32,209 nucleotides of DNA from a virus. The stretch's first letter is position 1. The number at the start of each line of letters is the position of its first letter. Below, piece after piece: positions 26,845 to 27,726 of the stretch. The position numbers were made by a program, and so were the translations under genes. The notes below the pieces were generated by a model. It saw nothing but the letters and a program-made list of their open reading frames with translations. It had not been told where the DNA came from and searched no databases. Where the stretch lies: IMG/VR virus record IMGVR_UViG_3300000103_000002, positions 1-32,209 of that record, one strand, 5' to 3'.

Positions 26845-27726
26845 ATGCCAAATGGAAATGGAAAAAAAACTGGCTCTTCATCGTCAGGGAAACGCCTTAT
26901 CACTGATCATTTTAAGCGGATATCTGATTTTGTTCAAGGAAGATCTGAATCTCCTGAAGATGAGATGCCGAAAACAAAAAAACAACATATTGATGATAGA
27001 ACTGTATCTCCGCCGCCAGCGTTTTCATCACCAGTGCCTCCGCCGCAAGTTGTAACATCGCCATATTTTTCACCACCAGCACCTCAACCACCGCGTGTCA
27101 CAAATAAGCCTCCGCATGGATTAACAATGGACGGTATTACACCGCCTCCCCATCTAGGTACAGGACACGCAAGTAAGATCGGTTTTAAAATTATGGAAAT
27201 ATTTCAAGATCACAATAAAGAACATAGAAATAAACAATATCTATATAGTCACGTACATCCTGGAATCCTTGATTCTGGAGGACTACGCGCCGTTGAAGGA
27301 TTGCCTAGACCACACTCGGAAATAAATGCATTACGTGCAATAACAGGGACAGCCCATTCAAGTCCTCCAGATGTACAGCCTGGATCTCACATAGGAGCAG
27401 TGCTAAATGAAGTAATCGCTGGTCAACAAAAACGAAAAGCGCAAGGTCAAGCCCCAGGGCAATTGCGAGTAAAGTTTTATATCCAAAACAGCGCCACCCC
27501 TCCATGCACCACGCCATATGGAAAACAAAGGTGGGCAGGAGGCCCAATAGAAGAGATACCTGGAATTCCATGCGATACCTACTTGCAAACGTTTGTGGAT
27601 AAACTAAAGGGATTCAAGGGATCAAAACTAGACGCCAGAATGAAAGTACATAATCCTAGCGTATCTACAACAACACCTGGGAAGAACACCAAAGAAAAAA
27701 CAAAAAAATACGGATACAAAAAATAG
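26845..27726 (+). CDS. Proline-rich protein with C-terminal deaminase-like (HxE...PC) domain; cargo/effector candidate
   Basis: 293 aa with an AGGAG RBS. Residues 55-102 are Pro-rich (SPPPAFSSPVPPPQVVTSPYFSPPAPQPPRV). Residues 150-166 (EGLPRPHSEINALRAIT) resemble the TadA helix ([20 protein letters not shown]). A strand followed by PC (LRVKFYIQNSATPPC, 207-221) and a second PC (GIPC, 240-243) are present. Both termini are basic. Confidence 0.45.
   Translation: MPNGNGKKTGSSSSGKRLITDHFKRISDFVQGRSESPEDEMPKTKKQHIDDRTVSPPPAFSSPVPPPQVVTSPYFSPPAPQPPRVTNKPPHGLTMDGITPPPHLGTGHASKIGFKIMEIFQDHNKEHRNKQYLYSHVHPGILDSGGLRAVEGLPRPHSEINALRAITGTAHSSPPDVQPGSHIGAVLNEVIAGQQKRKAQGQAPGQLRVKFYIQNSATPPCTTPYGKQRWAGGPIEEIPGIPCDTYLQTFVDKLKGFKGSKLDARMKVHNPSVSTTTPGKNTKEKTKKYGYKK

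Follow-up and report, generated by a model that had tools for sequence, protein, structure and literature searches.

The window analyzed here is a stretch of viral DNA of 32,209 nucleotides (IMG/VR record IMGVR_UViG_3300000103_000002, positions 1 to 32,209), and the subject of this study is a pair of neighboring genes at 26845..28238. The first gene, hereafter the target, occupies 26845..27726 on the forward strand and encodes 293 amino acids, which comprise a low-complexity N-terminal tail and a basic core of approximately 200 residues. The second gene, hereafter the partner, lies at 27804..28238 on the reverse strand, convergent with the target, and encodes 144 amino acids from the ATG at 28238 or 157 amino acids from an upstream TTG at 28277. 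A first-pass annotation had proposed the target as a phage cargo gene for a candidate nucleic-acid deaminase; the open reading frame and translation obtained here match its quotation exactly, and the ENA contig carries an identical gene call. The pair is interpreted as a mobile two-gene module of a lysis-released deaminase-like toxin and an exported antidote, with a probability that we put at roughly 0.45.

The target gene is preceded by an AGGAG ribosome-binding site at 26831..26835 on the forward strand, 9 nt upstream of the ATG. Directly upstream lies a gene for a VRR-NUC-type nuclease (26422..26826, forward; PF08774, E=1.3e-4, and phrog_824), and because the target begins 18 nt past the stop codon of this gene, it is likely co-transcribed with the late/lysis block, of which it is the last rightward gene. 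Ahead of the module, the lysis block is marked by an endolysin gene with GH108 and PG_binding_3 domains (25602..26105, forward; Pfam E=1.4e-21, phrog_315). The N-terminal extension spans residues 1–91 (26845..27117), contains 19% proline, 13% serine and 8% lysine, and is variable or absent in relatives; the composition agreed with the earlier description of a Pro-rich N-terminus with Lys-rich patches at both ends of the protein. The conserved core, as delimited from the core alignment and the structural model, spans residues 92–293 (27118..27723), has an isoelectric point (pI) of 9.7, and is predicted to adopt an alpha/beta fold. A chance motif in a spurious reading frame was ruled out by the strong ribosome-binding site, the homologs with 25–60% identity, and the confidently predicted fold.

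Direct assignment of the target to a known family failed, as searches against Pfam, NCBIfam, PHROGs, PADLOC, and PDB sequences gave zero matches and nothing relevant, and no relative was found among 50,697 phage records. A word-indexed search of 5.8 billion proteins recovered only the target itself and one homolog from the same sample (P0002). An exhaustive HMMER search of 1.84 billion cluster representatives returned 16 proteins at E<0.001, and a profile search raised this set by one, giving a family of approximately 17 members. All members originate from metagenome assemblies, none is named or carries a Pfam domain, and the family is absent from isolate genomes. No further usable members were obtained from the genome, viral, or metagenome contig collections, nor from the phage collection at the DNA and protein levels. 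One distant member, P0014, is chromosomal (L014–L019, 8001..8504) and keeps the RCHSE, PPC, and GIPC motifs; it has its own signal peptide, an acidic pI, and six cysteines in the mature part. It was found in at least 150 blocks of the collection, including contigs with human-gut-metagenome-like names, and is located between a prepilin peptidase gene and the RNase HII/TGT genes. The gene 5' of P0014 (7489..7983) also encodes a signal peptide, and no relation of its product to the partner family was detectable.

Conservation within the family was determined from a trimmed core alignment of 14 sequences (A3) and a full-length alignment, in which the 14–17 homologs are 25–60% identical. Only 12 positions of the 14-sequence core alignment are invariant, namely, R155, E159, R208, N215, P220, C221, C243, R265, K267, and Y289-G290-Y291. 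Position 157 varies, being His in nine, Asp in six, and Cys in one of 16 sequences, while Pro220-Cys221 and Cys243 are present in 16/16. The two cysteines are separated by 8–21 residues across the family, with 21 in the target. The residue two positions after the glutamate is variable (N, K, H, A, G, or D), so K/Q is not conserved there. The pI of the core domain is 9–9.8 in nearly all members, and several members hold an odd number of cysteines. The putative catalytic glutamate and both cysteines are thus among the most constrained residues of the family, and the motif exceeds chance because E159, P220, C221, and C243 fall among only 12 invariant core positions. The residue numbers given earlier for His157, Glu159, Cys221, and Cys243 were correct on the translation, and so were the spacings of 62 residues from E159 to C221 and 22 from C221 to C243. 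The helix string EGLPRPHSEINALRAIT is present as described, and its range required a shift by one residue, from 150–166 to 151–167.

The structure of the core was predicted using AlphaFold2 (AF2). With two sequences, the mean predicted local distance difference test score (pLDDT) was 37, while with the 14-sequence core alignment the pLDDT was 85 and the predicted template modeling score (pTM) was 0.84. The elements of the latter model follow the order β-β-α(HSE)-α-β-PC…C-α-β-β. Strands 1 (residues 109–119) and 2 (130–137) are followed by an SGG-containing loop of approximately 20 residues, which leads into the HSE helix. Here, R155-P-H157-S-E159 (27307..27321, forward) supplies the putative first zinc ligand and catalytic glutamate at the N-terminus of the predicted helix 158–167, with H157 as the N-cap and E159 within the first turn. 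An extra helix outside the canonical deaminase core follows at residues 182–199 (27388..27441; H91–108 in model numbering). Strand 3 (residues 206–215, QLRVKFYIQN; 27460..27489; E115–124) contains the invariant R208 and ends at the invariant Asn215. Pro220-Cys221 (27502..27507), with the putative second zinc ligand, lies 5–6 residues past strand 3. The variable inter-Cys loop (27508..27570; 21 residues, 8–21 in relatives) was modeled with a pLDDT of 78–81, and Cys243 (27571..27573), the putative third zinc ligand, is the first residue of the helix 243–254. The C-terminal beta-hairpin region (27631..27717) comprises strands 263–270 (DARMKVHN; E172–179), which includes the invariant R265 and K267, and 285–289 (E194–198), with no helix between them, and runs into Y289-G290-Y291. 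Apart from the extra helix at 182–199 and the lack of a clear helix 1, the order agrees with that of the deaminase core, a three-layer alpha/beta/alpha fold that runs strand 1-strand 2-helix 2-strand 3-helix 3-strand 4-strand 5. In this model, the fold of the target probably has the deaminase core order of the C-terminal-hairpin type, in which strands 4 and 5 form a hairpin without helix 4.

The predicted placement of the motif was compared with the features of known deaminases. According to PMC3239186, deaminases have His or Cys as the first zinc ligand, at the N-terminus of helix 2, bacterial toxin clades use DxE, and the SCP1.201 clade itself varies between DxE and HxE. The same source also documents inserts within the CxxC motif in Tad1/ADAR, RibD, and the nematode AID/APOBEC-like deaminases, and lists Asn at the end of strand 3 as a synapomorphy of the SCP1.201/DddA clade. 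In the target, the [H/C/D]xE pattern at the N-terminus of helix 2 is represented by HSE at the predicted helix 158–167, and two conserved cysteines flank the region where helix 3 begins, with the first forming the PC that follows strand 3, in an arrangement in which inserts are allowed. The H/D/C variation at position 157 corresponds to the ligand set documented for deaminases and appears informative rather than damaging. Overall, it is considered fairly probable that the target family belongs to the deaminase superfamily, and it is placed in no known deaminase clade. Membership of the SCP1.201/DddA clade was not adopted, as no significant similarity was obtained with hhalign. A housekeeping or phage nucleotide-metabolism deaminase was ruled out by the rarity of the family, its obligate exported partner, and its distribution as mobile cargo.

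The first-pass annotation had stated that no same-strand immunity gene follows the target and that the next gene is convergent. This is literally true and wrong in substance, as the convergent gene encodes a conserved exported partner, a homolog of which adjoins the target in 10/10 loci with readable context. The partner is convergent in six phage-type loci (the window, L002, L003, L006, L008/L009, and L020) and co-directional with the target in four non-phage loci (L004, L005, L007, and L010). Target and partner co-diverge, as judged from their pairwise divergences (Mantel r=0.67, p~2e-4), and the rate at which the two-gene module diverges is close to that of the phage genes on its flanks. 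Conserved motifs of the partner are PPNFxEIMP and RYFWWSHYYPVYEG. A Sec-type signal peptide (MMLRLSLLLFLLFSMVGA|M) is encoded at 28185..28238 on the reverse strand, and the cleavage junction is conserved as N-x-V-x-[AGS]|M. The signal segment reaches a mean Kyte-Doolittle hydropathy of 2.2–3.3 over 10 residues in every copy, compared with ≤1.4 over 10 residues in every member of the target family except P0014; in L007, the signal peptide is visible only from an upstream non-ATG start. The partner matched neither Pfam, including the Imm families, nor PADLOC. A weak match of the partner profile A6 to yeast PNGase (1x3w_A/3esw_A, E=0.008) covers an N-terminal helical region of approximately 100 residues, including the LLRYF motif; it is probably spurious, and no other clue to the fold of the partner was obtained.

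Just 5' of the partner, a consensus scan found a sigma-70-like site, TTGAAT-18-TG-TATCAT, at 28265..28294 on the reverse strand, which is possibly the partner's own promoter. Two further reverse-strand genes are co-oriented with the partner, namely, a lipoprotein gene (28452..28808; phrog_10370, E=8e-42) and an AlpA/Xis-type helix-turn-helix (HTH) gene (28868..29050; phrog_4745, PF12728). A GC-containing hairpin of 9–10 bp (AGCCACGTAAAAATGCGTGGCT) lies at 28395..28422 between the lipoprotein and partner genes, and it may be a bidirectional terminator that isolates the partner as its own transcription unit.

In the proposed mechanism, the target is most likely a very divergent zinc-dependent hydrolytic deaminase, in which H157 (Asp or Cys in relatives), C221, and C243 would hold zinc, and E159 would shuttle a proton. 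N215, together with R155, R208, R265, K267, Y289, and Y291, would line the pocket that receives a base of a nucleic acid or nucleotide. The inter-Cys loop of 8–21 residues and the extra helix at 182–199 would cap this pocket in the manner of the Tad1/ADAR and RibD inserts. In the phages, the target closes the rightward late/lysis block and carries no export signal, so its synthesis would be late and its release would occur upon lysis. Transcription of the partner would be separate and run on the other strand, like that of the leftward lipoprotein and HTH genes; once exported, the partner would intercept the enzyme outside the cytoplasm, so that cells carrying the element would be protected. 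A further proposal is that the family is a new, compact deaminase clade of approximately 190 residues with the split zinc motif [H/D/C]xE...PC-x8-21-C, used by temperate phages and satellites as a toxin released by lysis and paired with a Sec-exported inhibitor that acts outside the cytoplasm; in this full form, it is regarded as doubtful.

Several points weigh against the interpretation as a deaminase-like toxin with an exported antidote. When every family member was scanned singly at E≤10, no deaminase profile of Pfam, NCBIfam, or PHROGs was matched, and sequence and profile searches of the PDB with the target family gave zero matches. The family was aligned with DddA and with a five-member DddA-clade alignment by hhalign at a probability of only 0.06–0.2%. 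The contiguous PCxxC spacing is not found in the family, and in the AF2 model helix 1 is not evident while an extra helix is present. Foldseek matches against the PDB were at noise level by score (best E 0.28, TM 0.13–0.25, rmsd 7–9 Å), and Foldseek against the viral library BFVD gave no match. Regarding delivery, no receptor-binding or translocation domain was recognizable by sequence in the target, and several members, one of them the copy P0003 from a syntenic phage, lack the N-terminal tail. As for the partner, the immunity proteins of known nucleic-acid deaminase toxins are cytoplasmic, and to our knowledge an exported antidote has no precedent in this toxin class; such an antidote fits better with a target of attack outside the cytoplasm. 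Moreover, the co-directional genes in four loci indicate that separate regulation is not universal, and sigma-70-like sites were not more numerous than in shuffled sequences, which weakens the consensus match taken as a possible partner promoter.

To judge the weight of the sequence comparisons, hhalign was calibrated with true deaminase pairs, for which the sequences of DddA, TadA, and APOBEC3A were verified as 6u08_A, 1z3a_A, and 8fii_A, respectively. With equally thin profiles, DddA-TadA, DddA-APOBEC3A, and TadA-APOBEC3A all scored below 1% probability. Thus, as hhalign misses true deaminase pairs with thin profiles, the sequence tests are uninformative rather than negative. Under the same conditions, the scores of the family against TadA and APOBEC3A equaled those of the true pairs. 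The best local match to TadA placed PRxHSEIxAL in the catalytic register, with HSE on HAE (P=0.05), and the best local match to APOBEC3A placed LRVKFYIxNSxxPPC on YRVTWFISWSPC, with strand 3-PC on WFISWSPC (P=0.13).

A Foldseek comparison with the deaminase superfamily, which had been suggested as a check, gave no significant match, with deaminases only top-ranked. Rank 1 in the PDB was the ADAR deaminase domain 9dp5_B (E 0.28, TM 0.19), ranks 2–5 and most of the top 40 were APOBEC3 domains (APOBEC3G/B/F/A), and rank 6 was the JAB protein BRCC36. Accordingly, this noise-level list is headed by several independent families with deaminase-like folds (ADAR, APOBEC3, and JAB). A JAB-type metallopeptidase was rejected because the family lacks the HxH, Asp, and Ser signatures and its conserved residues agree with the deaminase pattern. 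The suggestion of a divergent deaminase fold is partly supported by the invariance of the glutamate and cysteines, the H/D/C set at position 157, the element order, and the Foldseek ranking, and not by any significant structural or sequence match; such a fold is regarded as probable.

The lack of a significant structural neighbor and of any sequence or profile match also favors a different explanation, in which the target is not a deaminase and instead has a new alpha/beta fold that acts outside the cytoplasm, with the cysteine pair as a disulfide or another metal site and with the conserved Glu, Arg, and Asn residues serving another hydrolytic or binding function in the periplasm or medium. 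It agrees with the export of the partner in all loci and with the signal peptide and six mature cysteines of the distant member P0014, and Cys-ligated zinc sites are uncommon in the oxidizing periplasm. However, an exchange among H, D, and C, as seen at position 157, typifies metal ligands and would be unexpected beside a structural disulfide, and several members have an odd number of cysteines. The motifs are placed on the predicted helices and strands as in the deaminase template, and even the noise-level Foldseek matches cluster in three independent families with deaminase-like folds. Furthermore, secreted zinc deaminases exist, namely, the SNADs (PMC5889660). This explanation is considered unlikely, and it is the one that we would hold next to the deaminase-like toxin and exported antidote.

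The distribution of the module was determined from the genomes that carry it. The window has an exact 85-bp direct terminal repeat (1..85 and 32125..32209), and therefore it represents a circularly closed, complete phage genome of approximately 32.1 kb. The genome is podovirus-type and encodes a terminase, a T7-type portal, internal virion proteins, a capsid, a tail protein, the endolysin, VRR-NUC, ERF, and an IS110-type recombinase. The portal shares no more than about 26% identity with that of any isolated phage. In three related podophages, the module occupies one position, in the order of tail, GH108 endolysin, small membrane ORFs (open reading frames), VRR-NUC, target, convergent partner, leftward genes, and AlpA/Xis-type HTH, and the VRR-NUC-target order is kept in the related phages L002 and L003. 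The module is also carried by an island that opens with tRNA-Ser and an integrase sharing 41% identity with P4 Int, after which come AlpA and a primase. Further carriers are a separate 33-kb element and a small islet (L005) beside the PADLOC candidate PDC-S01. In L005, PDC-S01 (2619..3782; AAA_14/DUF4143, E=2.5e-49) is directly upstream of the module, and the gene at 680..2170 encodes a 496-aa protein with weak matches to pAgo/SIR2-associated N-terminal domains; the surroundings are defense-island-like. The designation of the target as a cargo gene was therefore borne out, with the cargo being a two-gene module that three related podophages share with a P4-type island integrated at a tRNA gene and with other islets. 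Because of the P4-like integrase of the tRNA-Ser island and the GH108 endolysin, the hosts of this mobile cargo appear to be Gram-negative and Proteobacteria-type.

Such carriers raise the question of whether the module is an anti-phage abortive-infection system of prophages and satellites, in which the effector would deplete or edit nucleotides or nucleic acids upon infection and the exported partner would sense or regulate from the envelope. Its presence on an integrase-AlpA-primase island of the tRNA-Ser/P4 type, next to PDC-S01 in another locus, and in a moron-like position in temperate-type podophages is in line with this function, as phage and satellite hotspots are known to harbor defense systems (PMC9122126). 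However, the target, the partner, and their homologs match no model of PADLOC-DB v2, and a soluble exported protein could not easily signal to a cytoplasmic effector. In the phages, the effector gene also closes the late/lysis block and does not belong to a unit expressed during lysogeny, and the family is absent from isolate genomes. Considering both sides, a defense function is rated as rather unlikely, somewhat below the non-deaminase explanation.

The N-terminal tails invite a further explanation, action in eukaryotic cells, which the first-pass annotation had already raised. Their length ranges from 0 to approximately 300 residues across the family, and some members carry poly-S/N/Q; the homolog P0002 shares the N-terminal MxxGNG with the target. 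Long eukaryote-looking tails, with poly-S/N/Q and Pro/Thr-rich segments, are found in P0007, P0010, P0012, and P0013 (loci L010, L008/L009, and L021), which are nonetheless encoded in dense prokaryote-type contigs beside the partner gene. An effector acting inside eukaryotic cells of a host or protist after its release or export would account for these Pro/Ser/Thr-, poly-S-, poly-N-, and poly-Q-rich tails; it could be, for example, an editing deaminase directed to the nucleus, for which the partner would serve in delivery or as a chaperone. Basic clusters resembling nuclear localization signals (PPTKKRRP in P0002 and PKTKKQ in the target) and the N-terminus MGGFLSGC of P0007, which resembles a myristoylation/palmitoylation site, point the same way, and phage-borne eukaryote-directed toxins beside lysis genes have precedent, for example in the APSE phages. 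However, at least six members, among them P0003, have a very short tail or none, and basic patches are equally expected of a nucleic-acid-binding enzyme. In addition, neither secretion-system signals nor associated secretion genes were seen in any locus read. An effector of eukaryotic cells is thus judged improbable.

Returning to the deaminase-like toxin with an exported antidote, a close point of comparison is offered by the SCP1.201/DddA-like toxins (PF14428; PDB 6U08). Like the target as modeled, these have a small basic toxin-type domain in which strands 4 and 5 form a hairpin without helix 4. They share with the target family the [H/D]xE variation at helix 2, the Asn ending strand 3, the variation of Cys spacing within the clade, and an adjacent small cognate protein. 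The Cys motif is CxxC in DddA and C-x5-C in DddA-like toxins of Streptomyces (GVCTKKQNC and GVCGGMYGC), the loci of which (L012 and L013) are on plasmids NZ_CP108274.1 and NZ_CP109357.1; in the Streptomyces and Treponema homologs, Imm1 is encoded downstream. One of the Streptomyces toxins ends in ...RILYG, recalling the C-terminal RYGY of the target family. Unlike the DddA clade, however, the target family has no detectable sequence or profile similarity to it, its Cys pair is split by 8–21 residues, an extra helix lies between helix 2 and strand 3, and K/Q is not conserved two positions after the glutamate. The target also stands alone, without Rhs, PAAR, or other trafficking domains, and its partner is not Imm1/DddI-like and is exported rather than cytoplasmic. 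In the case of the split Cys pair, a precedent is given by Tad1/ADAR, RibD, and the nematode AID/APOBEC-like deaminases (PMC3239186), in which the two zinc-binding cysteines are parted by a pocket-capping insert; these proteins have no sequence similarity to the target, and the Foldseek match to ADAR is not significant.

The arrangement of the genes was also compared with that of the colicins. In ionophoric colicins, the immunity gene is on the opposite strand with its own promoter (PMC9517006), and the colicin M immunity protein, Cmi, is periplasmic (PMC4661593). Similar to the target, colicins have no signal peptide, and they are freed by lysis functions encoded alongside, as the target would be. 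The partner of the target is colicin-like in being convergent in the six phage-type loci and in having a signal peptide in all copies; in the four non-phage loci, it is co-directional. The interpretation as a toxin with an exported antidote is favored because this arrangement would, by analogy, mirror that of bacteriocins with envelope immunity. Unlike colicins, the target has no recognizable receptor-binding or translocation domains, it is predicted to be deaminase-like rather than pore-forming or lipid II-cleaving, and the module is on phages and integrative islands rather than on Col plasmids. A likeness also exists with phage moron and toxin cassettes near lysis genes, such as the toxin cargo of temperate podophages, as the module is an accessory at the end of the late/lysis block, its position is conserved among related phages, and it recurs on unrelated mobile elements. 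Unlike the known moron cassettes, neither of its proteins is in any described family.

Some further features of the phage genome were recorded outside the module. An IS110-type DEDD recombinase (PF01548 and PF02371) is encoded at 30850..31830 on the forward strand, after the ERF gene, and its counterpart in L003 is at 12549..13526. The gene is at the same position in two related phages, yet the copies are only 49% identical, and identity to plasmid copies is only about 33%. A tyrosine or serine integrase is absent from the circular 32-kb genome, and the recombinase may function as the integrase of the phage itself and not belong to an insertion sequence (IS). The upstream 335-bp non-coding gap at 30515..30849 might contain a guide (bridge) RNA, but Rfam, searched with the whole window, gave no match. 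The tail protein of 1305 residues (21661..25578, forward) contains approximately eight tandem repeats of the form 'G.L.AIAYG.G.FVAV...G....S.D.G.TW' at about residues 800–1060, and its only family match was a weak one to Sortilin-Vps10. Judging from their sequence, the repeats are presumably beta-propeller (BNR/Sortilin-like) blades of a receptor-binding part. A low-GC stretch (28%) at 28600..29500 separates the leftward HTH gene from the small early genes that run rightward, and it contains a TTGACA-18-TAAGAT site at 29122..29151. This stretch probably serves the phage as its divergent regulatory (switch) region; a repressor was not recognized.

Neither the target nor the partner matches any described family, defense system, or toxin-immunity pair. 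If the fold assignment is wrong, what remains is a mobile module of two conserved genes, of a fold not described before, for which a confident structural model is available. If it is true, the target family would add to the deaminase superfamily a new branch that is very rare, has a split zinc motif, and is accompanied by an exported partner without precedent. As the DddA, TadA, and APOBEC base editors stem from the same superfamily, such a branch would provide compact editing enzymes with different substrate caps and a matched natural inhibitor, which would be useful to base editing. An obligate pair of a deaminase-like protein made in the cytoplasm and an exported partner on phages and P4-type islands departs from the picture of nucleic-acid toxins neutralized by cytoplasmic immunity. 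This pairing may reflect a form of phage-mediated competition between bacteria, or of defense, that has not been described.

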